From Candidatus Methylomirabilales bacterium (GTDB lineage Bacteria; Methylomirabilota; Methylomirabilia; Methylomirabilales; CSP1-5), in NCBI GenBank assembly GCA_046758505.1, contig JBHIAH010000043.1, positions 1 to 21,877 on the forward strand: a DNA stretch of 21,877 nt, written 5' to 3'. Each line of letters opens with the position of its first letter. Position 1 is the stretch's first letter. Position numbers and translations under genes: made by a program. Shown here piece by piece: positions 9,830 to 21,849 of this stretch. The notes beneath the pieces are model-generated. The model ran no database searches and was not told the DNA's origin. It saw only the letters and a program-made list of their open reading frames with translations.

Positions 9830-10408
9830 TCAGTCCCTATGCAATCGCGGGTGGGGAAAGCGGCACCGGATGGTTTCAACAAAGGTCCGGTCCGCGGAGG
9901 CCGAGAACATCTCCAGCGGCGAGTATCCCCGCTTCCACGCAAGGTAAACGGTGACCACGACCGCTGCAAAGGTAATCACAAAGTTGGGCCAGGCGTTCAA
10001 TTCCCATTGGTCCTGCCACGTCCAGTGCCAACCGTCCGAAAATGGGAGCAGGTAGTGAATGGGCCACGGGTACCCGTCCGGTCCCCGACCGCCGACAAGG
10101 TCTCCCAAGAGATGCAGGTGGAAGCTCACAACCGCAAGGGCGGCCGTCTTCCACCGGCGGGTTGCCACCAGGAAACTCACCCCCGCGACGACGAGGGCAA
10201 ATCCCAGGTTGTGTGCCAGAATATGGTGATACTTTGAGTACCACAAGAGCGGATGGTCCCACCCCCGCGTTAGCTTCTCCGCGATGGCCCCAATGCCGTC
10301 AACATCGGGCGCGACACCCGCCAGTGTCACAGCCGCTCGTTCCTTCCGGCTGAGATCCGCGCTATTGGCAACGAGCCATCCCACGAGAAAGTGGGTCGCG
10401 GGACTCAT
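9830..10408 (-). CDS. Membrane-bound metal-dependent hydrolase (YdjM-like)
   Basis: SD AAGGAG before ATG 10408; MSPATH, APDVD, HHILAH, HLLGD and P-x-x-x-x-x-P motifs. Confidence 0.85.
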   Translation of the reverse strand: MSPATHFLVGWLVANSADLSRKERAAVTLAGVAPDVDGIGAIAEKLTRGWDHPLLWYSKYHHILAHNLGFALVVAGVSFLVATRRWKTAALAVVSFHLHLLGDLVGGRGPDGYPWPIHYLLPFSDGWHWTWQDQWELNAWPNFVITFAAVVVTVYLAWKRGYSPLEMFSASADRTFVETIRCRFPHPRLHRD

Positions 10409-10491
10409 CGGTATGTACTCCTTCTGAAAAGCAAACCGCCCCTCCGGGCTGTTCGCGGCCGAAGGGGGCGGTGCAACGCCTGTGCCAGAGG

Positions 10492-10989
10492 TTAGGATAC
10501 TCGCTCGGGTTGGCTCAAGAGCGTGTGATGGCACAGCAGGAGAATATTGGCGGTCAGAAGACCTAGGAGGATCCCCAGGCCGATCGTGATCTCTTCTTGC
10601 AATAGTCTGCGACCAGTAGTGAGAAGGACCAGGTTGGAACAGGCAGCCACGAGTTTCAGTGGGCCGATTGCAATGATCAAGGCCGCCACGATGTATGAAC
10701 CTACCGCCCGATAGGAAAATGGCAAGATCAGGGCTATCCACCGTCCACGTTGCGCTATCCATTCACGGATCACGAGCAGACCGGGCCAGTACAGGGTGAG
10801 GAGCGACACCGCGATCATCAGACGGATGACGGACCAGGCGACGTATCCGTCCACGGAAAGACGGTGAACCATCGGATTGAGGTCGTACGCAAGCATATCG
10901 GGGCCAGCCGCCAACGTGGACGCCGTATCCGCCAGGAAGGCCAATATCAGGATCTTTACGGAAACCATGAAGGACTTTGAACGATTCAT
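10492..10989 (-). CDS. Membrane protein with DUF5658-like motif
   Basis: About four TM segments; LADTASTL...DLNPMV parallels the motif in 9108-9827; SD-like AGGA upstream. Confidence 0.6.
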   Translation of the reverse strand: MNRSKSFMVSVKILILAFLADTASTLAAGPDMLAYDLNPMVHRLSVDGYVAWSVIRLMIAVSLLTLYWPGLLVIREWIAQRGRWIALILPFSYRAVGSYIVAALIIAIGPLKLVAACSNLVLLTTGRRLLQEEITIGLGILLGLLTANILLLCHHTLLSQPERVS

Positions 10990-13466: not shown

Positions 13467-13689
13467 TTGACACGGAGCATGCCTGTCGGATACTAAAGAC
13501 AGCACTTCGTGGTGATCGGTCGCGTGCGCAACCGGTAGAGAGGGGGAGTGCAAAGCTCCCCACGGGGCGGAGAGAGATGAAACCGGGGTGACAATAACCC
13601 CCGGCCCACCGCTGGCACAATCGTTGGTGTACTTGAGACCCAGACGCCTTCCGGGCGGAGCACGGCCCGCGAAGGCGTTTTCCTTTTCT
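13467..13689 (+). ncRNA. Candidate small RNA gene with own promoter and terminator (copy A of an unrecognised family)
   Basis: TTGACA-16-GATACT (13467-13494); core 13577-13623 is 36/47 identical, ungapped, to 20141-20095 (minus); terminator-like stem ACGCCTTC/GAAGGCGT (13644-13678) plus T-rich tail; no credible long ORF. Confidence 0.6.
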
Positions 13690-14045
13690 ACCATCGGGTG
13701 AAAAAAGCGGAAAAAGCGGTGGGGCCCCAGGGAGAGGAAACGGGCGCAGAAAGAAGCACCGTCCCTTCGGGACCACGACAAATAATCGAGGCGGCTTGAC
13801 CGCACCCGCTGGCAGGCAGAGACGGTAAAGCCGCCCGCTCCCGCCCGAGGAACGAGGCATGGCCTCTGTCCCGGGGCCGAGCGTTGTTACGTATAGCATG
13901 CTGGCAAAGCCGAATGCAACTTCCTTCTCGTTGCACCAGATCGGTGCGCGCAGACTGTTCAGGGAAGAACCATCACGTCACCGATGACGCGCGTGAAAAT
14001 CCGCACGGGGAGAGCACGGGACCGGGCCGGAAGGAGGTGAAGACG

Positions 14046-14195
14046 ATGGCAAATCCACCGACCTGCATGACGTGCGGGTCCGTCCTGACGGGCTACGGCT
14101 GGAGCAACGAGCTGAGTTTCCCGGTACAGTTCTGTATCAAGTGCAAACCGCAAGGGGCCGCCGCGAAAGCGGAGGCGACACCGGAAGCGGCCTAG
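14046..14195 (+). CDS. Small CxxC-CxxC (zinc-finger-like) protein, 49 aa
   Basis: Perfect SD AAGGAGGT; MANPPTCMTCG...FCIKCKP; followed by a terminator. Confidence 0.75.
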   Translation: MANPPTCMTCGSVLTGYGWSNELSFPVQFCIKCKPQGAAAKAEATPEAA

Positions 14196-14273
14196 GCTTT
14201 TGCCGGTGAGGGATAGGGGTTACAGGCCCGGTCCCCGCTTTCCCGCCCTCACGAGTGCGACGTCGCCGGAGAA

Positions 14274-14317
14274 AAGGCGCCTTCCCGGACTGCCGGGAGG
14301 GCGCTTTCTTTCATTTT
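14274..14317 (+). terminator. Rho-independent terminator
   Basis: AAGGCGCCTTCCCGG-ACTG-CCGGGAGGGCGCTTT followed by a T-rich tract. Confidence 0.75.
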
Positions 14318-14437
14318 GTGCTTGACATCTGAATACTATATCTTGTATGTATCGTCATGGCCAACCCAAGAAATTGGGGAGGCCAGAGAGAGGCGAGATC
14401 CCCCTAAAGCGATGCGGGTGGAGGGGGATCAGAGGCA

Positions 14438-14518
14438 GTGAGTCTTGAAATCCTGGGGTTGATCACAGCGGCATTCGGTGTCCTGCTGCTCGCGAACTGG
14501 GTCGATCGCCGACGCTGA
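14438..14518 (+). CDS. 26-aa hydrophobic peptide, candidate Fst/Ldr-like type I toxin
   Basis: GTG...TGA encodes MSLEILGLITAAFGVLLLANWVDRRR: one TM helix plus a W-x-x-basic tail. SD GGAGGGGG lies in a 9-bp stem; AT-rich promoter region at 14310-14355. Below the ORF-track size cutoff. Confidence 0.6.
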   Translation: MSLEILGLITAAFGVLLLANWVDRRR

Positions 14519-14837
14519 GCCGCACGGGTGCCTTCACGGCCAAGACATCTTCCTCTCCAGACGGTGAGGGCCAGGGCTGGTTTCACCACTCCCCTCGATA
14601 GGCTCTCTCTTACCGGCTTCATCTCTTTGTTTCCCTTCCATCCCCCGCCTGACACCGCATCTCCTCCCGCTCCGGCATGGTGACCGACCTACCCAGTGGG
14701 GGTCCAGAGATGCAGGGTCGAGACCGCCTGAAGACCACCCCGCCATGGCATTGCCGGTGCCGCGCTTCCCTGCCGAAAATCGGTCAATGACATCCGACAA
14801 GACCCTTAACTCATTACAAATCCAGCGTGCCGCTTTC

Positions 14838-14853
14838 TGGCACATCCCTTGCT
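14838..14853 (+). promoter_or_regulatory. Putative sigma54 promoter of PilZ gene
   Basis: TGGCACATCCCTTGCT, a perfect match to the consensus, preceded by an AT-rich patch at 14806-14821. Confidence 0.7.
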
Positions 14854-15046
14854 ATCCCATCTTGATCGGACCATGATGCACGTCGGACGTCGATGAGGAA
14901 CGAACCCGGGGACCAAGAGACGCATCCCGGCCCTTGCCCCTGACGGCTCGCCCTCGGGATACGAAGGGTATCGCAGAGAGCGGGCCGAGGTGATCCAGAT
15001 CCGGGGGGGCGAGCTTCCGGACTGAAAGGCAGCAGGAGGAATTCCG

Positions 15047-15496
15047 ATGGGAGACGAACGGCCCGACAGACGACAATACCCCCGCGTCAGCGTAGCGGGC
15101 AGGACCAAGGGGCAAGTCAACGCCGTCTACGATGTGTCGCTCCTGGACATCAGTCTGGGGGGGGCACTCATCGAGCATGCCCAGGTCGTCCAACCGGGCA
15201 TTATCTTCGATCTGATCCTCACCCTGCAAGGATGCAGGATACAGCTCCGGTGCCGCGTGGTGCGGTCGACGGTGCATCGGCCAGAGGTGCAGGCAGACGG
15301 GGGGCGGAAGCTGATTTACCGGACGGGGTTAGAGTTTCTCCAACCCTCCACCGAGATGCGACAGGTCATCACCAGTTACATCCAGTCGATCATCGAGCAT
15401 GAGAACGGAGGCCCCCCGACCGCAGCAGACCCGCTCGAGCCGCTGGAACACGGCAGCCTGCACCTCGAAGGCCCGGCCGGCCAACGCGCGCGCTAA
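15047..15496 (+). CDS. PilZ-domain protein (c-di-GMP binding motifs intact)
   Basis: SD AGGAGG; RRQYPR (RxxxR) and DISLGG (D/NxSxxG); CRVVR...GLEF. Confidence 0.88.
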   Translation: MGDERPDRRQYPRVSVAGRTKGQVNAVYDVSLLDISLGGALIEHAQVVQPGIIFDLILTLQGCRIQLRCRVVRSTVHRPEVQADGGRKLIYRTGLEFLQPSTEMRQVITSYIQSIIEHENGGPPTAADPLEPLEHGSLHLEGPAGQRAR

Positions 15497-15582
15497 CCGG
15501 CGGCGGCGACGCGGATCGCCGGATTGAGACACCGGCCTCGCCAACAAGAGCCGTGACCTGTTCCAACACCTCGACTCTCCCC

Positions 15583-15610
15583 CCTGAACCATGAACCCTG
15601 AACACTGAAC
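15583..15610. repeat. Four tandem heptamers NNTGAAC
   Basis: CCTGAAC CATGAAC CCTGAAC ACTGAAC. Confidence 0.75.
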
Positions 15611-15932
15611 CGTCTCTGGACCTCCCCGCTCACCTATCATAGGAAAAATAAGGGCAAATGTTTTTCACACAACTGCCGTGAACGCGGTGGCTACCATGAG
15701 AAACTCGCACTCGAAGATAAATGGTAATTGTCGAGACGCGACCCCGCTCCCCGCTCTTTTCCCACACGCCTGAGGGCCTGCCAGCGCCACCCGGAATGGG
15801 TTGCATGATGGTCTTGACTTCGGCCCCGGGCGCGGCGATACTCACACCTCATGCGCGGGCTTCAGCTTCAGCGCTTCAGAGATGGAGCTGGAAACCCGAT
15901 GGTCCTGTATCGTACCAGTATGGAGCCGAAGA

Positions 15933-16730
15933 ATGAATGAAGGGCGTACGGGTTTTCACGGCGGAATCTGTGATGTGGATGGTGTGCTGGTGGCCTCTCC
16001 ACATGAACGGGCGTGGCGTGAGACCCTCGACCGCCTTTTCGAGACGGAGTGGCGAGGCATTCTCCCTCAAACGACGTATCAGCCAGAACGCTTTACGACC
16101 GCGGTGTATCAGGAGCATGTGGCCGGTAAGCCGCGGTTTAGCGGAGCGGAAGCAGCGTTAATCTACTTTGGCGTACCAGATGCCGCTGAGCGCTCACAAC
16201 GTTACGGCGAGTGCAAGCAAGCGTATTTGATTGAGTTGATTACGGCGGGGCAATTTAGGCCATTTCCCGATGGCCTGCGATTTGTTCTTGCGGTAAAAGA
16301 AATGGGAGTCCGTGTTGCGGCGGCATCATCATCGAAGAATGCCCATCTGTTCTTGGAACGAATACCACTCGATGTATTTTCTCAATCAGAGGGGAAGAGG
16401 TATCGCGTCGTCTTTCCCGGGATGACCTTGCTCGAGCTGTTTGATGCGAATGTCTGTGGGCGCTTTGAGCGAGGTAAGCCGCATCCAGAGATCTTTGTAA
16501 ACGCAGCCAATGATTTGGGCCTATCCCCCGGAGTCTGCTTTGTTGTCGAAGATGCGACGTCGGGAATCCAAGCAGCAAGGGCAGGGGGGATGGCTGCCCT
16601 GGGGGTCGCTCGACTGGATGATGAAGCCCTGCTCAGCGAGGCGGGTGCCGACCTCGTCGTGAGTTCACTCGACGACGTCGCGCTGGAGCCATTGACCCGT
16701 GGCCGGCTCGAGCGGCGACCAAAGACATAA
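15933..16730 (+). CDS. Beta-phosphoglucomutase-like HAD hydrolase
   Basis: SD GGAG before ATG 15933; HAD motifs DVDGVL, ASSSKNA, GKPHPEIF, VEDATSGIQAA; adjacent to a GH65 gene. Confidence 0.88.
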   Translation: MNEGRTGFHGGICDVDGVLVASPHERAWRETLDRLFETEWRGILPQTTYQPERFTTAVYQEHVAGKPRFSGAEAALIYFGVPDAAERSQRYGECKQAYLIELITAGQFRPFPDGLRFVLAVKEMGVRVAAASSSKNAHLFLERIPLDVFSQSEGKRYRVVFPGMTLLELFDANVCGRFERGKPHPEIFVNAANDLGLSPGVCFVVEDATSGIQAARAGGMAALGVARLDDEALLSEAGADLVVSSLDDVALEPLTRGRLERRPKT

Positions 16731-16733
16731 GCA

Positions 16734-18983
16734 ATGATTGGGAATCGAGTGACAGGGGATATCTTTCGAGTCGAGAACGATCCGCGGTGGCTTGTGACAA
16801 TTGAGGGCTGGACTCCGAAACATGAGCCTGCGGTCGAGTCGCTCTGCGCCCTCGTGAACGGGTATTGTGGCGTACGAGCGGCTGTGGAGGAAGGGAGCAG
16901 CGTCTCAAACCCGGCGACGTTTTTGAATGGCGTGTTTGACGCGGCCCACGACATGGTCGCTCAGTCTGCTGCAACACCGGAGCATCAGGTGATCGCCGCA
17001 CCCACGCCGGAGCTTGTCAAAGGCCCAGATTGGTCGCGCATCCGCGTCATGCTCGAAGGGGTCCCGTTGCAGGTCGTCGAGGATCACTTGCTGCACCACA
17101 AGCGGATCCTCGATATGCGTCGTGGTGTCCTTGTCCGCGAGTGGCGGGTACGTCACGGGACACGCACAACGTCTCTCCGTTCACTGCGCTTCGCTTCCCT
17201 GGACGATCGCCATCTGTTAGGACAGGTTCTTGAGATCACGCCGGAGGACTGGTCGGGGCAGATTGTGCTTGAAATGCTCGTTGAAGACGATGTGACAAAC
17301 GAGGGAGGGGTACGTCATTTGATCGGCCTGCAAACGCATCGAGACTCAGATCGACTACTGTTAACGGCTGTCACATCAGAAAAGGGTATTGCGATCTGTC
17401 TGGGGGCGTGGGCTCGGCTGACGACTGGACATGGAACCCAAATGGATGGTGTCCAGGAATGTACACAACAGGCTCTCATCCATCGCTGGGTCTTTCAGGC
17501 AGAACGTGGCCAATCGTATACCTGTCACAAACTATGCGCACTCTTTACTTCCCGTGATTCCCCAAAGCCCGCAGAGCGAGTGTCCAAAGAATTAGATAGA
17601 GCCGTCGTACAGGGATTCCCTGCAATACTCACAGCGAGTACCCGATCGTGGGGTCTCCGTTGGGCAAGCACTGATATTCGCATTGATGGAGATGACATCA
17701 TCCAGCACCAGACGCGGTTTGCGCTCTACCATCTGATTGGGTGTGCCAATCCCGCCGATGAGTATGCATCCCCAGGTGCTCGTTCATTGACGGGTGAACG
17801 GTATAAAGGGCACGTTTTTTGGGACACGGAAATCTTTGTTCTTCCCTTTTTCATTTTCACTCACCCGCCCACGGCGAGGGCACTGTTGATGTATCGCTAC
17901 CACACCTTGCCCGCCGCGCGGAATAAGGCTCACTCACTTGGTTATCGGGGCGCGTTGTATGCATGGGAATCGACTGATACCGGGGTAGACGTGACGCCGT
18001 CGTTCGTGATCAATGCGGCAGGCGAGCGGCTTGAGATTCTCACGGGCTTGCAGGAACACCATATTTCGGCCGATATCGGCTACGCCATCTGGCAGTATTG
18101 GAAAGCGACAGACGATACCGCGTTTTTTGTCCACGCTGGAGCCGAGATGCTGTGTGAAATTGCCCGCTTTTGGGCGAGTCGCGTCGTGCAGCGCGAAGAT
18201 GGTTGTTTTCATATCGAGGCGGCAATCGGGCCGGATGAGTATCATGAGACAGTCACAGATAATGCGTATACAAACTGCATGGCGCGCTGGGTATTGCGAC
18301 GCGCGGTGGATGCGGCCGGATGGCTGCGAATCCATCACGCCGAGCAATGGGTCGCATTATCGGAGAAGATTGGATTGGCGGATGAAGAGATTGACAGGTG
18401 GTCACACGTGGCGGAGAAGCTGGTTGATAATTGTGACCCCCACACCGGTCTCTTCGAGCAGTACCGCGGGTACTTTGATTTGGTACCAGTCGATTTAGGG
18501 GATTATGAGCCACGCGAGCAGACGATGGACGTGATATTGGGTTGGCAAGAGCTGGTCAGAACCCAGATTATCAAACAGGCGGATGTGGTGATGCTGCTCG
18601 TGTTGTTAGGACATCACTATTCCCGCAGCGTCTGGGAAGCAAACTATCGATTCTATGAACCGCGCACGTCGCATGACAGTTCATTGAGTGCGAGTATGCA
18701 CGCATTGATGGCGGCCCGACTGGGGGACCTCAACGATGCGGAGCGCTATTTTCGAAAAGCGGCTAGCATCGATTTAGATTTTGAGCACGGCGTGACGGCG
18801 GCAGGAGGAGTGCACATCGCCGCGTTGGGCGGTATGTGGCAAGCACTGGTGTTTGGATTTGGGGGCCTAATGGTGACCGATCAGGGGCCAACATTTGCGC
18901 CGCACGTACCAAAGGGGTGGGGTCCTCTGCGCATACCACTGCGATGGCGGGGGGAACAGCTTTACCACGACGTACATGCATAA
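16734..18983 (+). CDS. Glycoside hydrolase family 65 (alpha-glucoside phosphorylase; kojibiose/maltose/trehalose type)
   Basis: NGYCGVRA, YKGHVFWDTE, GALYAWES, HISADI, GPDEYH (catalytic Glu), KQAD, HDSSLS, GFGG. Substrate cannot be assigned by eye. Confidence 0.93.
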   Translation: MIGNRVTGDIFRVENDPRWLVTIEGWTPKHEPAVESLCALVNGYCGVRAAVEEGSSVSNPATFLNGVFDAAHDMVAQSAATPEHQVIAAPTPELVKGPDWSRIRVMLEGVPLQVVEDHLLHHKRILDMRRGVLVREWRVRHGTRTTSLRSLRFASLDDRHLLGQVLEITPEDWSGQIVLEMLVEDDVTNEGGVRHLIGLQTHRDSDRLLLTAVTSEKGIAICLGAWARLTTGHGTQMDGVQECTQQALIHRWVFQAERGQSYTCHKLCALFTSRDSPKPAERVSKELDRAVVQGFPAILTASTRSWGLRWASTDIRIDGDDIIQHQTRFALYHLIGCANPADEYASPGARSLTGERYKGHVFWDTEIFVLPFFIFTHPPTARALLMYRYHTLPAARNKAHSLGYRGALYAWESTDTGVDVTPSFVINAAGERLEILTGLQEHHISADIGYAIWQYWKATDDTAFFVHAGAEMLCEIARFWASRVVQREDGCFHIEAAIGPDEYHETVTDNAYTNCMARWVLRRAVDAAGWLRIHHAEQWVALSEKIGLADEEIDRWSHVAEKLVDNCDPHTGLFEQYRGYFDLVPVDLGDYEPREQTMDVILGWQELVRTQIIKQADVVMLLVLLGHHYSRSVWEANYRFYEPRTSHDSSLSASMHALMAARLGDLNDAERYFRKAASIDLDFEHGVTAAGGVHIAALGGMWQALVFGFGGLMVTDQGPTFAPHVPKGWGPLRIPLRWRGEQLYHDVHA

Positions 18984-19259
18984 GGATACGTACAGTAAGC
19001 GTGGGAGTCAGGCGGAACTTGCCCCGGTTTGACGGACACACCGAAAGGGGACACCATCCCCAAGGGGGTGTTGTACGTCTGAAACAGTGGGATGTTCCCT
19101 CTTCTGTCCGTCGATTATCTTGGTCCGCATAAAAGCCCAGACCCACTCTTGCGGGTAGGACATCCCCCACCTCTTGTCAGTGTGCGGTTAATGGTGCCAG
19201 CGGGAGACGAAGGGGGATGCCTCCGCCACTTCCATGGCTGCCCGGTTTTCCGAAGCAGG

Positions 19260-19379
19260 CTACCGGGGGTCAGTGAAGAGGCCTTCACGGAGCATCGGCC
19301 TCAGGATCACCATGGCAATGAGGATGGCAGTTGCCGGCACCAACAGTGGAAGCATGCTCGCCAATCGGCTCACCTTCAT
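19260..19379 (-). CDS. 39-aa single-pass membrane peptide
   Basis: SD AAGGAGG; MKVSRLASMLPLLVPATAILIAMVILRPMLREGLFTDPR*; upstream TTGACA-18-GATACT at 19480-19451. Not in the ORF track. Confidence 0.6.
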   Translation of the reverse strand: MKVSRLASMLPLLVPATAILIAMVILRPMLREGLFTDPR

Positions 19380-19565
19380 CATTCCCTCCTTTTCGGTTGT
19401 TCTGGAGTATGGCTAGCCTGATGCATGCCTGCCACGCCTCCGAGGGTTCAAGTATCCCCCCACGGTGGAAGGGGTGTCAAGTGCGCCGAATAGGTCACGG
19501 TGGATGCTGACCTGCGTATCCTTTCCCGCCTCCACTCTTTCACGTATAGCAGAAGAAAACACTCC

Positions 19566-19594
19566 TTGACAGGAAAAGGGGGACGTGTTATTGT
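19566..19594 (+). promoter_or_regulatory. Sigma70 promoter of cold-shock gene
   Basis: TTGACA-17-TATTGT with an extended -10 TG. Confidence 0.7.
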
Positions 19595-19753
19595 CCATCC
19601 AGCTTTCGTGATCGGCTTGTTGTGGAAACGAGAACCGCAAGGGCTTCATGGAGAGCCCGTGCGGTTTTTTTATGCCGTCGGGTCTCGTCGCGACGAGACC
19701 TCACCCCCGGGCAGTCCCCGGGGATCCTCAACAGAAAGGAGGGAGACAGGAAC

Positions 19754-19957
19754 ATGCGATACAGTGGCACCGTAAAGTGGTTCAACGACGCCAAGGGCTA
19801 CGGATTCATCGAGCGACCAGATGGTCCCGATGTATTTGTGCACTATTCGTCGATCCAAGGCGGTGGATTCAAGACGCTGTCCGAGGGGCAGTCGCTTGAG
19901 TTCGATGTCGTGGAAGGACCGAAGGGCGAGCAGGCGGCCAACGTCACCAAGCGATAG
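19754..19957 (+). CDS. cspA: Cold-shock protein, CspA family
   Basis: [15 protein letters not shown] (RNP1), DVFVHYS (RNP2), GFKTL, GPKG-x-QAANV; purine-rich SD region. The paralog letter is not determinable. Confidence 0.95.
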
Positions 19958-19980
19958 GTGGTCGAATGCAGCTCTGGGCA

Positions 19981-20019
19981 GAAAGGGCCTCGAGATTCCC
20001 GGGGCCCTTTCGCTTTTTT
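19981..20019 (+). terminator. Rho-independent terminator after csp, possibly bidirectional
   Basis: GAAAGGGCCTCG...CGGGGCCCTTTC followed by GCTTTTTT. Confidence 0.8.
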
Positions 20020-20195
20020 CGTCGGCTTGGCTGCGGGATCACCGGTGCGGCTTTGGGATCCGAGAGGTCGTCTAATAAGTAGTTGGTGCGCCGCCGATTG
20101 TGCCGGAGGTGGGCTCGGTGTTATGCCTACCCCGGGTCCATCCCTAACTCCTGTGGAGAGGGCCTAAGTATGCCCTCCCGGCCCAGGGCTGTCAA
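20020..20195 (-). ncRNA. Candidate small RNA gene (copy B)
   Basis: Minus strand TTGACA-17-CATACT (20195-20167), then AGGAG-N6-ATG GAC CCG GGG TAG and the shared hairpin core 20135-20103. The 3' end is assumed to be the csp terminator. Confidence 0.55.
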
Positions 20196-20248
20196 GCGCG
20201 GGCAGGTCAAGTCGGGTGCGGAGGAGGTGCATGGCCGATGGTCCGGTC

Positions 20249-20274
20249 AGATAATTGTACTTATCCCCATTTTC
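20249..20274. repeat. 26-bp exact direct repeat, dif-like site (copy 1)
   Basis: AGATAATTGTACTTATCCCCATTTTC, identical to 21262-21287; ATAA-N6-TTAT core. Confidence 0.85.
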
Positions 20275-20286
20275 ATTTTCATCGGG

Positions 20287-20886
20287 CTATGGTGCACAGC
20301 GAGACTGCTGCCGGACGTGGTGGATCCGAACGAGATACAGCAAGGCCCCGAGGTCGTAGCCGGCGTGCACGAAGATGGCGGGCAGCAGGTTGTCAGAGAC
20401 CATCAGCAGCCCACCGAGGTACAGGCCCAAAAGGGCTGCGATGGCCGCATAGGCCTCTGTGAGAAGATGCGCCAGCCCGAACAGGGCGCTGGCAAGGAGG
20501 AGGGCGACGAACGGGCCCAGCCAATCGGCCAGGGCGATCTGGATGACGCCCCGGAAGAGGATCTCCTCTCCCAGGCCCGCCGCGACCGCAACGAGGGTCA
20601 GCTCGAAATACGAGCACTCGGCAAAGACGGGGACGATCGTCTCAAACACCTCGTGCTGCAGGCGGCGCAAAGGCCCCCAGGACGATCGGGCGCACCACCA
20701 CATCCCCAGAAGCGGCGGCCAGATGGCGCCTATCCCCAGGACAACGGCTTGCCACCCCAGGGAGATGCGAGCAAACGGCGGATGTCCCGCCCACCAGCCC
20801 AGGCCCAGCGCCAGCCCAAGCAGGCCGCCCTCGAAGAGAACTGTTATCCACACAATCCGGCCAGAGACGGCGCGCGAGCCACTCAC
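20287..20886 (-). CDS. CPBP (Abi/CAAX, type II) intramembrane glutamic endopeptidase
   Basis: GEEILFRG, FGLAH, HAGYD motifs; several TMs; GTG 20886 follows GGGAGG. Confidence 0.9.
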   Translation of the reverse strand: MSGSRAVSGRIVWITVLFEGGLLGLALGLGWWAGHPPFARISLGWQAVVLGIGAIWPPLLGMWWCARSSWGPLRRLQHEVFETIVPVFAECSYFELTLVAVAAGLGEEILFRGVIQIALADWLGPFVALLLASALFGLAHLLTEAYAAIAALLGLYLGGLLMVSDNLLPAIFVHAGYDLGALLYLVRIHHVRQQSRCAP

Positions 20887-20910
20887 CCCCCCTCCCACTC
20901 TGCTGGGTCT

Positions 20911-21004
20911 TTGACAGCCTTCCCTCGCTGAACGATACCCAGGCCCCTTGGTAGGAGCAAGGGGGAGCCGGGGAAGGCATAGTCGATCGTCCTCCCCCGG
21001 TACA
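20911..21004 (+). ncRNA. Candidate small RNA gene (copy E, lacks the mini-ORF start)
   Basis: TTGACA-17-GATACC, then AGGCCC...AGGAG...CCGGGGAAGGCATA...CCCCGGTACA; 25/37 identical to copy B over hairpin + YACA. 3' end not defined. Confidence 0.45.
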
Positions 21005-21261: not shown

Positions 21262-21287
21262 AGATAATTGTACTTATCCCCATTTTC
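21262..21287. repeat. 26-bp exact direct repeat, dif-like site (copy 2)
   Basis: Identical to 20249-20274. Confidence 0.85.
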
Positions 21288-21290
21288 CCT

Positions 21291-21785
21291 ATCCAGCTTC
21301 GCCAAGCCGTTCAAACAGCCTCCCTGCCCGACGCCTGGGCAGAGAAGATGCTCGGGAAGATCGAGGAATGGAAAAAGACTGAAGCCCAGGCGGCGGGCGC
21401 TGCCGCTCAACCGCTCAAAGACAGGCTCGCCGCGCTGGAGGCGAAGCTCGGCCGACTCCTCGACGGCTACCTGGACGGCGTCATCGCACGCGAGGAATAC
21501 GCGGGGCAGAAGGAAAAACTCCTATCGCAGAAGTCGGCCGTCACGGCGCGGCTTGGCCAGATTGAGCGGCAGGGGAATCACTGGCTCGAACCCTTGACAC
21601 AGTTCGTGTCAAGGGCTAACCAGGCCCATTCGGTGGCGGTCGGGGGAAATCTGGACTCGCTCAAGGAGTGGACGAGCCGGATTGGCTCGAACCACAGGCT
21701 GGCGGGCCGAACCGTGCGACTGGCATACGAAAACCCCTGGCGCCTCGTGGCCGCCAGGGGCAAAAATGACACTTGGTGGAGCTGA
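21291..21785 (+). pseudogene. C-terminal fragment of a large serine recombinase-like integrase
   Basis: Coiled coil LAALEAKLGRLLDGYLDGVIAREEY...K..L, then WLEP, GSN and PW, typical of large serine recombinase C-termini. Catalytic, recombinase and N-terminal zinc-ribbon parts are absent. The last codons overlap the tRNA 3' end. Confidence 0.65.
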
Positions 21786-21849
21786 CGGGATTCGAACCCG
21801 TGACCTCGTGACTGCCAGTCACGCGCGCTCCCAACTGCGCCACAGCCCC
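21774..21849 (-). tRNA. tRNA-Ala (anticodon GGC)
   Basis: 76 nt GGGGCTGTGGCGCAGTTGGGAGCGCGCGTGACTGGCAGTCACGAGGTCACGGGTTCGAATCCCGTCAGCTCCACCA; G3-U70 alanine determinant, TTCGA T-loop, encoded CCA. Confidence 0.98.

Follow-up and report, generated by a model that had tools for sequence, protein, structure and literature searches.

Putative ribosome-gated attenuator leaders with a stop-free -1 frame recur before dozens of genes in a Methylomirabilales bacterium

Results

Organization of the leader family

The window analysed here, a stretch of 21,877 nt on contig JBHIAH010000043.1 of the Candidatus Methylomirabilales bacterium assembly GCA_046758505.1, carries copies of a repeated element which, judged from its sequence, is a cis-regulatory gene-control leader and not a free small RNA (sRNA). 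The leader consists, in order, of a promoter, a Shine–Dalgarno (SD) sequence, a mini-open reading frame (mini-ORF) of the form M-x-P-G-stop, a linker and an intrinsic terminator, followed by an unrelated gene, and our principal finding is that a second frame, -1 relative to the mini-ORF, has been kept stop-free from the mini-ORF stop to the foot of the terminator, as the pattern of substitutions indicates. Counting columns from the A of the ATG, the mini-ORF occupies columns 1-15, a second in-frame stop columns 19-21, the linker extends to column 66 and the terminator hairpin, at columns 67-104, is followed by the U-tract. The element therefore measures about 110 nt from ATG to U-tract, and the 33-nt pattern that a first-pass annotation of the window had taken for the whole element is its front third. 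The same annotation had proposed a multi-copy, probably transcribed and unrecognised family, and this was borne out: comparison of the three window loci with Rfam gave no match at E values up to 5, and a literature search (mostly open-access papers, the motif-discovery papers by their main text) returned no description of the leader family, which we regard as real and undescribed.

The mini-ORF behaves like a translated ORF

Codon counts were made on 227 non-redundant copies from 249, and changes of the start and stop codons were followed on a tree of 309 non-redundant copies, the full set analysed out of approximately 550 genus matches. Upstream of the mini-ORF, pairing with the anti-SD sequence reaches -6.5 kcal/mol, compared with -4.4 kcal/mol for shuffled sequence, and the purine-rich GGAG segment noticed previously is the mini-ORF SD. 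Single changes from ATG lead to GTG or TTG in 21 of 34 cases (22% expected, P=9e-7), and changes of the stop codon lead to another stop in 21.4 of 46.4 cases (9.5 expected, P=1e-4). These data indicate that the start and stop codons of the mini-ORF are under selection and that it behaves like a translated ORF. All three stops are used at codon 5, the 201 TRR copies comprising 99 TAG, 80 TGA, 18 TAA and four TGG, and in genus g8 codons 2-4 vary and yet codon 5 is a stop in 25 of 30 copies. The conserved CCGGGG-N5-ATA motif corresponds to codons 3-4 plus the second in-frame stop; codon 7 is a stop in 143/180 copies, with borderline retention (18.4 of 68.4 changes vs 12.8 expected, P=0.07). Because the least variable column of the 5' part is the third base of the Pro codon, selection does not appear to act on the peptide, and a test for amino-acid leaders showed no run of control codons matching the downstream pathway.

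A second frame is kept open as far as the terminator

A change of frame was considered because G9 is invariant. Start, stop and terminator are all present in 162 of the 206 copies that cover the terminator, and among these 162 the number that meet no stop up to column 100 is 143 for the -1 frame, 79 for the +1 frame and 96 for frame 0 after codon 7. On the tree, and in the true phase, stop-creating substitutions in columns 22-66 of the -1 frame number 13.4 vs 37.4 expected (z=-5.1), whereas the other two frames show no deficit (36.6 vs 38.5 and 35.6 vs 35.2 expected). At least seven codons contribute to this deficit, which peaks at columns 40-57 and weakens over columns 58-66. Each of the three stops is depleted; when stop sets and frames are permuted, the real set in the -1 frame comes first of 216, and the depletion holds in the own-genome, g8, UGA and UAR subsets and on terminal branches. 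For columns 67-100, phase permutation gave 15 vs 38, a difference that kinship may inflate.

As the idea of a -1 frame was formed post hoc, we fetched a held-out set of 103 new non-redundant copies (of 119) from 100 further regions. In these copies stop-creating substitutions again fell short of expectation (7.0 vs 20.6 overall and 6.0 vs 15.1 on terminal branches, placing second of 216), and the -1 frame was open in 61/65 copies compared with 38 and 44 for the other frames.

Candidate routes into the -1 frame

Immediately before the stop, GGGG, GGGA or AAAA is found in 220 of the 227 intact copies, including one copy in which G-GGG has been replaced by A-AAA. Changes within this tetrad are uneven: G9-to-A, which is synonymous, accounts for one of seven changes at its position and G10-to-A for one of 11, whereas G12-to-A accounts for 16 of 19. 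The rarity of G9-to-A together with the frequency of G12-to-A fits what a slip site predicts. Programmed frameshifts of the prfB kind call for a site ahead of the stop at which the tRNA can re-pair and for a shifted frame without stops; the leader has both, and a -1 slip is the entry route that best fits the sequences. Translation of the -1 frame from further upstream was rejected, as that frame meets a stop within 45 nt in 117/184 copies. Reinitiation at the overlap is possible in UGA copies; GUG or AUG is absent from the overlap in 135/227 intact copies.

A further comparison was made on 255 of the 309 copies that could be anchored, some rows of which are mis-anchored. Where the stop is intact, 204 of 205 copies can be read in the -1 frame beyond column 56 without meeting a stop; the codon-5 stop has been lost in 50 copies, 41 of which are open from the ATG past column 56. 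A net +1 shift is enriched in the stop-lost copies (20/50 vs 30/205, P=2e-4), and the fused copies form 16 groups on a tree built from short sequences, so that the number of origins is probably overcounted. One subfamily (L358, L359, L381, L407 and L070), found in genus g1 and one Binatia bin, has CGA where the stop would stand and one inserted base, which together make the leader a single continuous ORF.

Release after Pro or Gly is described as slow, and slower without methylation, in PMC7246954 (citing Pierson 2016). Release factor (RF) 1, RF2 and elongation factor P are present in the genome, and its prfB gene (G000:C23:8385) has a CTT-TGA frameshift site of its own. None of 41 genomes from the order yielded RF3, and its absence was accordingly discarded as a correlate of the leader.

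RNA structure

Only the terminator helix clearly passes the structure tests, with 90% of cells paired and its own arms better than swapped arms in 200/200 trials. The first-pass annotation had seen conserved pairing between the ends of the 33-nt cores, which our results do not uphold: in folding, the cores do not surpass shuffled sequences (z=-0.05, 0.50 and 0.39), and the end-pairing helix, 90% paired with a 5' side that hardly varies, fails the partner swap (P=0.3-0.4). A short local hairpin is borderline in the same test (P=0.03-0.04). The helix between the GGYG strand and the terminator foot has four pairs at 86-96% and forms more than in shuffles, and fails the partner swap (P=0.1-0.27). 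A linker/GGYG-strand helix had no support and a mini-ORF/terminator helix none in partner swaps, and both were set aside. Covariation in a larger alignment had been suggested as a test of conserved structure; a tree-aware analysis of 206 copies returned no significant pair, and since the terminator was missed as well the test is underpowered. The highest-scoring pair of covarying columns consists of the two purines of the stop codon.

Models of known RNAs were also compared with the family. The fluoride riboswitch (RF01734) gives two true hits in the genome, L268 and L269 on contig C15 of G000, and none at family copies; the layout of their expression platform parallels the 3' half of the leader. 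Covariance models of the guanidine-III riboswitch (RF01763) and the T-box (RF00230) had no match at family sites. A CsrA/RsmA-sequestering sRNA was likewise rejected, as no Rsm/Csr family matched at the copies and a loop GGA occurs in a minority of the rows of alignment A1.

Promoters, boundaries and downstream genes

A promoter-like site lies upstream of 61/218 copies, compared with three in a downstream control, most commonly 22-26 nt before the ATG. In a class with a long 5' region (e.g. L001, L005 and L011), a UUCG-capped hairpin is seen in 54/218 copies and an SD-adjacent hairpin in 12/218, and these extra hairpins might add a further level of control over initiation at the mini-ORF. Copies that are followed by different DNA cease to resemble one another at columns 105-124 in 99/108 cases. 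Behind 153 copies there is an ORF on the same strand, picked heuristically, with a median distance of 206 nt from leader ATG to gene start. These genes encode CBS, Usp, PilZ and LuxR proteins, sigma-54 activators, methyltransferases, GYD and NmrA proteins, transporters and many proteins without a family.

In the window, copy A precedes a gene for a 49-amino-acid CxxC...CxxC protein (positions 14046-14195), contrary to the earlier statement that no copy has a protein gene behind it. Of 22 loci of this gene that were tested, 10, among them the one in the window, have a leader 56-381 nt upstream of it, and they come from two genera. The protein, for which comparison with Pfam gave no match and no family can be assigned, is encoded in 16 of the 151 genomes of a phylum sample, often with paralogues. 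As a trans factor for the leader this small zinc-finger protein was rejected, as it was not found in 5/5 handles tested and was found in only two of 18 g8 genomes.

Family size, host range and clustering

An iterated nhmmer search of the 2.99-Mb genome (149 contigs) gave 44 hits at E < 0.001, and model R1 gave 48 matches, placing the total at approximately 45-50 copies. R1 and alignment A1 hold 66 rows, two of them probably from G007, and the identifiable G007 loci were excluded from the codon and frame statistics. The search of relatives recommended in the first-pass annotation gave R1 matches in 12 of 13 congeners, with 3 to at least 150 each, 150 being the ceiling set on scoring. In the phylum sample, with 24 candidates scored per genome, R1 matched in 22/151 genomes, among them 8/18 of genus g8, 2/3 of g5, 1/1 of g2 and 0/94 of family f9; the tallies for congeners and for g5 count G007 and G021. 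Two Binatia bins, the only two among 121 genomes of their order, have 16 and 11 matches, for which transfer and mis-binning are both possible. Exact-match loci (n=46) come mostly from Methylomirabilales/Methylomirabilota bins, with four Binatia loci and one Nitrospiraceae locus, and no exact match to the family was found in viral contigs.

Within the genome the copies are clustered, 47% having a neighbour within 5 kb compared with 13% expected, 30 of 31 close pairs lie on the same strand, and the flanks of the copies are slightly GC-poor. Same-strand arrays of leader and gene reach eight units at L001 (G000:C18:25282-37514) and seven at L002 (G000:C2:1854-17457). A 227-bp stretch that starts at the -35 box and takes in the whole U-tract is the same in two C18 copies around one gene, which could be a recent gene capture or an effect of assembly.

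Copies in the window

The promoter-like TTGACA-16/17-(G/C)ATAC(T/C) sites reported previously were recovered at 13467-13494 (+), 20195-20167 (-) and 20911-20939 (+), the 33-nt pattern starts at 13583 (+), 20135 (-) and 20968 (+), and the identities of 36/47 (without gaps) between copies A and B and 25/37 between B and E were reproduced on recalculation. The three loci reported are all genuine members of what is a far larger family in the genome, and copy A alone is intact (Table 1). Copies A and B score 116 and 62 bits with R1, both far above chance; copy A was a member of the R1 training set and copy B was outside it. Copy E alone falls below significance (E=0.13 with R1, 0.54 in the iterated nhmmer search of the genome). 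At its position, beside a gene for a CAAX protease, G009 and G012 have an intact mini-ORF, as does a paralogous site on contig C2, and on account of these equivalent loci we take copy E to be a decayed family member. Copies B and E are, by their sequence features, relics; copy B has lost the 3' arm of its terminator and the U-tract, and is oriented toward the terminator of cspA.

Table 1 Coordinates of the leader copies and neighbouring features in the window
Feature	Position	Strand	Details
Copy A, sigma-70-like promoter	13467..13494	+	-35 at 13467-13472, -10 at 13489-13494; predicted from sequence
Copy A, SD-like GGAGAG	13569..13574	+	Sequence; family-wide anti-SD pairing
Copy A, mini-ORF1 (M-K-P-G-TGA)	13577..13591	+	Start and stop retained under mutation across the family
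Copy A, G-GGG tetrad before stop	13585..13588	+	Candidate -1 slip site
Copy A, second in-frame stop (codon 7, TAA)	13595..13597	+	The 'ATA' of the first-pass annotation
Copy A, ORF2 (-1 frame, 37 codons)	13588..13701	+	Open through the terminator; family-wide stop depletion
Copy A, weak hairpin (GGYG strand and base of terminator 5' arm)	13623..13651	+	-6.7 kcal/mol; candidate pause/antiterminator hairpin
Copy A, intrinsic terminator	13643..13688	+	GC hairpin and U-tract; -27 kcal/mol
Gene behind copy A, 49-amino-acid CxxC...CxxC protein	14046..14195	+	Without known family
Copy B, promoter	20167..20195	-	
Copy B, mini-ORF, linker and terminator 5' arm	20060..20141	-	Mini-ORF M-D-P-G-TAG at 20141-20127
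Cold-shock-domain gene and its terminator	19754..20011	+	Pfam CSD; convergent with copy B
Copy E, decayed relic	20911..21004	+	Promoter kept; ATG to GGG, stop to AAG, nothing past about column 43
Relic D (weak)	19129..19238	-	E=0.002 (R1); family-type promoter at 19480-19451
Relic F (weak), 3' linker and terminator-like hairpin	10424..10522	-	E=0.001 (R1); directly before ORF at 10408

Several other features lie close to these copies. Behind the zinc-finger gene, a terminator at 14274-14316 resembles the family terminator (E=0.009) and may be a relic copy, and a 26-codon hydrophobic ORF at 14438-14518, which gave no matches in a comparison with PHROG, has a look-alike at the same place in L033. 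An exact 26-nt direct repeat (20249-20274 and 21262-21287, 1013 nt apart) brackets the CAAX-protease gene and copy E; a dif-like site was considered for it and rejected, approximately 10 of 15 fuzzy genome matches looking like the same motif. A tRNA-Ala(GGC) gene on the minus strand within 21288-21849 adjoins an ORF fragment with a weak match to the C-terminus of a PHROG integrase (E=1e-4), and this segment is probably the scar of an integrated element. Copies on contigs C1 and C27 likewise lie at most 1.4 kb from tRNA genes.

Discussion

Proposed mechanism

We favour, with somewhat more confidence than doubt, the interpretation that the leader is a portable ribosome-gated transcription attenuator, in which a -1 slip (or reinitiation) at a slow stop would let the ribosome override the terminator. 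Most ribosomes would release the tetrapeptide at codon 5, the terminator would fold and the gene would be off. Where release at Pro-Gly-stop is slow, the peptidyl-tRNA-Gly would slip one base back on G-GGR and elongation would continue in the -1 frame, with reinitiation at an overlapping GUG/AUG as a possible second door in UGA copies. RNA polymerase would probably wait at the weak GGYG hairpin until the frame-shifted ribosome caught up and covered the 5' arm of the terminator, allowing the gene to be transcribed; the fading of the stop depletion at columns 58-66 would mark the point at which the front edge of the ribosome reaches that arm. The second stop, and a frequent +1-frame stop at column 26, would close other routes. 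The signal would be termination stress, whether from release factors that are in short supply, lack methylation or are trapped, or from drugs that induce frameshifts, and its readers would be dozens of accessory, stress and signalling genes. A wider proposal, which we put forward more tentatively and consider somewhat less probable than not, is that of a genome-wide regulon (of up to at least 150 copies) in which termination efficiency, instead of a metabolite or a transcription factor, is read via a programmed -1 frameshift at Pro-Gly-stop and opens intrinsic terminators before accessory and stress genes, and in which the cassette provides the homology by which new genes are added in tandem.

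A number of our results weigh against this interpretation. The held-out copies belong to the same genus as, and have a common ancestry with, those that had suggested the post hoc -1 frame, the Binatia subset shows no significant depletion (2.0 vs 3.2), and over columns 67-100 the tree test shows none (20.1 vs 21.1; held-out 3.8 vs 7.4). The tetrad is absent from seven of 227 intact copies, and half of the g8 copies differ from CCGGGG. A +1 insertion opens the frame automatically, which inflates the count of fused variants, and folding with a masked ribosome changed the outcome only modestly (from 0.37 to 0.5-0.65). An intact terminator does not go with better retention of start and stop (P=0.13), ORF1 takes indels as often as the linker does, and the downstream genes have no pathway in common that would name the signal. 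Moreover, dN/dS (the ratio of non-synonymous to synonymous substitution rates) is approximately 1 in every frame and the linker has many indels that alter the frame, so that only the openness of the -1 frame would be selected and its product would be irrelevant; by the same ratio we rejected a conserved peptide in any frame, including the Pro-Pro of the -1 frame (120/180).

Alternative explanations

The second frame might instead be entered by termination–reinitiation at overlapping R-U-R triplets (GUG/AUG over UGA, GUA/AUA otherwise), with initiation fidelity or recycling as the signal, or translation of ORF2 might promote termination; either of these variants of the two-frame attenuator seems to us unlikely. 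Column 12 is a purine in 205/206 copies, UGA copies (2.4 vs 15.8) show a more marked depletion than UAR copies (9.0 vs 16.2), five of the seven intact tetrad-less copies have GUG/AUG at the overlap, and overlaps of the ATGA type are described as coupling upstream ORFs (uORFs) in PMC13285730. However, this scheme leaves the invariance of G9 unexplained, as well as the majority of intact copies in which GUG/AUG is lacking, and G10-to-A, a change that would strengthen any internal SD, is avoided. A conventional short-uORF attenuator of the vmlR/lmo0919 type, in which a stalled ribosome would only switch helices and no second frame would be translated, offers no explanation of the frame-specific stop depletion, and of the helices it could use only the terminator passes the partner swap clearly, the local hairpin being borderline. 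This scheme would nevertheless suit the conserved SD, start and stop, competing helices are possible (CCGGGG pairs locally or with the terminator 5' arm, and GGYG with the base of that arm), and the outline equals that of the vmlR uORF(MIN) (PMC9226507); we judge it quite unlikely.

That the family is an orphan ligand riboswitch or an antiterminator-protein site, its codon-like patterns being incidental, appears improbable given the identity of the top covarying pair, the negative Rfam comparison, the failure of the fluoride, guanidine-III and T-box models to match family sites, and the lack of the best-linked small protein in many leader-bearing genomes, even though column rates differ strongly outside the terminator (4 to 69 changes per column), the weak helix over the terminator foot parallels the design of the genome's two fluoride riboswitches, and PilZ genes recur downstream (6/92 and 2/~40). 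The first-pass annotation had itself proposed paralogous trans-acting sRNAs, CsrA-type sponges or antitoxins. Terminated leaders of approximately 130-230 nt would indeed be released in numbers, the attenuator RNA rnTrpL is said to act in trans (PMC6614838), and copy B, without a gene of its own, points antisense at cspA; yet intact copies stand in cis, on the same strand, before genes, with start, stop and open frame selected, B and E are broken while A is whole, there is no conserved fold, and the GGAG segment is the mini-ORF SD and the loop GGA a minority variant, so that this origin of the family is highly improbable. Much the same very low probability attaches to a mobile repeat that spreads neutrally, or to a recombination site of the integron type by which gene arrays would be built up. 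The clustering, the same-strand pairs and GC-poor flanks, the sharp 3' boundary at the U-tract, the identical 227-bp pair and a copy number that varies from 3 to at least 150 are all in keeping with it, and such a reading may explain the spread of the family, not its function. Against it stand the codon-level selection, the failure to find a reverse transcriptase or serine-recombinase domain, the location of all four tyrosine-recombinase matches on contigs without a scored copy, and the lack of copies in viral contigs.

Comparison with known systems

Leader-ORF attenuators known to date are mostly one-off switches, one for each operon, whereas the present family looks like one ribosome-read switch copied before dozens of genes. 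If the mechanism holds, the leader would offer a compact and portable means of sensing termination stress, of which hundreds of variants exist in nature, and it poses the question of whether cells use release-factor efficiency as a global signal. In prfB, encoding RF2, a +1 shift at CUU-UGA makes the protein, and there, as proposed for the leader, release and tRNA slippage compete at a stop codon and natural in-frame variants exist; in the leader family, by contrast, the shift would be -1, all three stops are used and the sequence of the product is not conserved. Attenuators of the pyrBI type have one open leader frame and sense UTP through polymerase pausing. They resemble the proposed mechanism in that the terminator's 5' arm is physically occupied by a ribosome engaged in translation, and the stop-lost variants would be closest to them, whereas the majority of copies would be gated by the stop.

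The vmlR leader of Bacillus subtilis, as presented in PMC9226507, has an SD and a short uORF, uORF(MIN), upstream of an intrinsic terminator, and shares with our family the 3-4 codon uORF, the terminator downstream and a peptide tolerant of change. It differs in being a single copy before a resistance gene and in working by stalling and helix exchange, whereas our leaders number in the dozens, stand before unrelated genes and have another frame free of stops, with no anti-antiterminator that could be demonstrated. The MgtL peptide of the mgtA leader also begins with an acidic residue 2 and Pro 3; according to PMC11282234 it needs a second acidic residue, Rho and EttA, whereas codon 2 of our mini-ORF is often K, G, P or V and a link with EttA was rejected, as none was found over the cut-off. 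An attenuator of a DUF1127 gene is said to monitor translation efficiency (10.1101/2025.01.31.635925). The uORF candidates of PMC11109978, the main text of which does not mention this lineage, are defined by a consistent downstream gene, which the leader family does not have. Of leaders in which a frame-shifted ribosome runs into the spacer and unfolds RNA structure, as would occur here, the review PMC5009743, in its treatment of such cases, names only ketolide-induced ermCL, where control is translational and drug-induced, and pheL, where shifting is called incidental. In the leader family, by contrast, selection keeps the new frame open, slippage would take place at G-GGR-stop and a transcription terminator would be what the ribosome acts on, so that, if the change of frame is real, it would be a selected regulatory frameshift controlling transcription termination.

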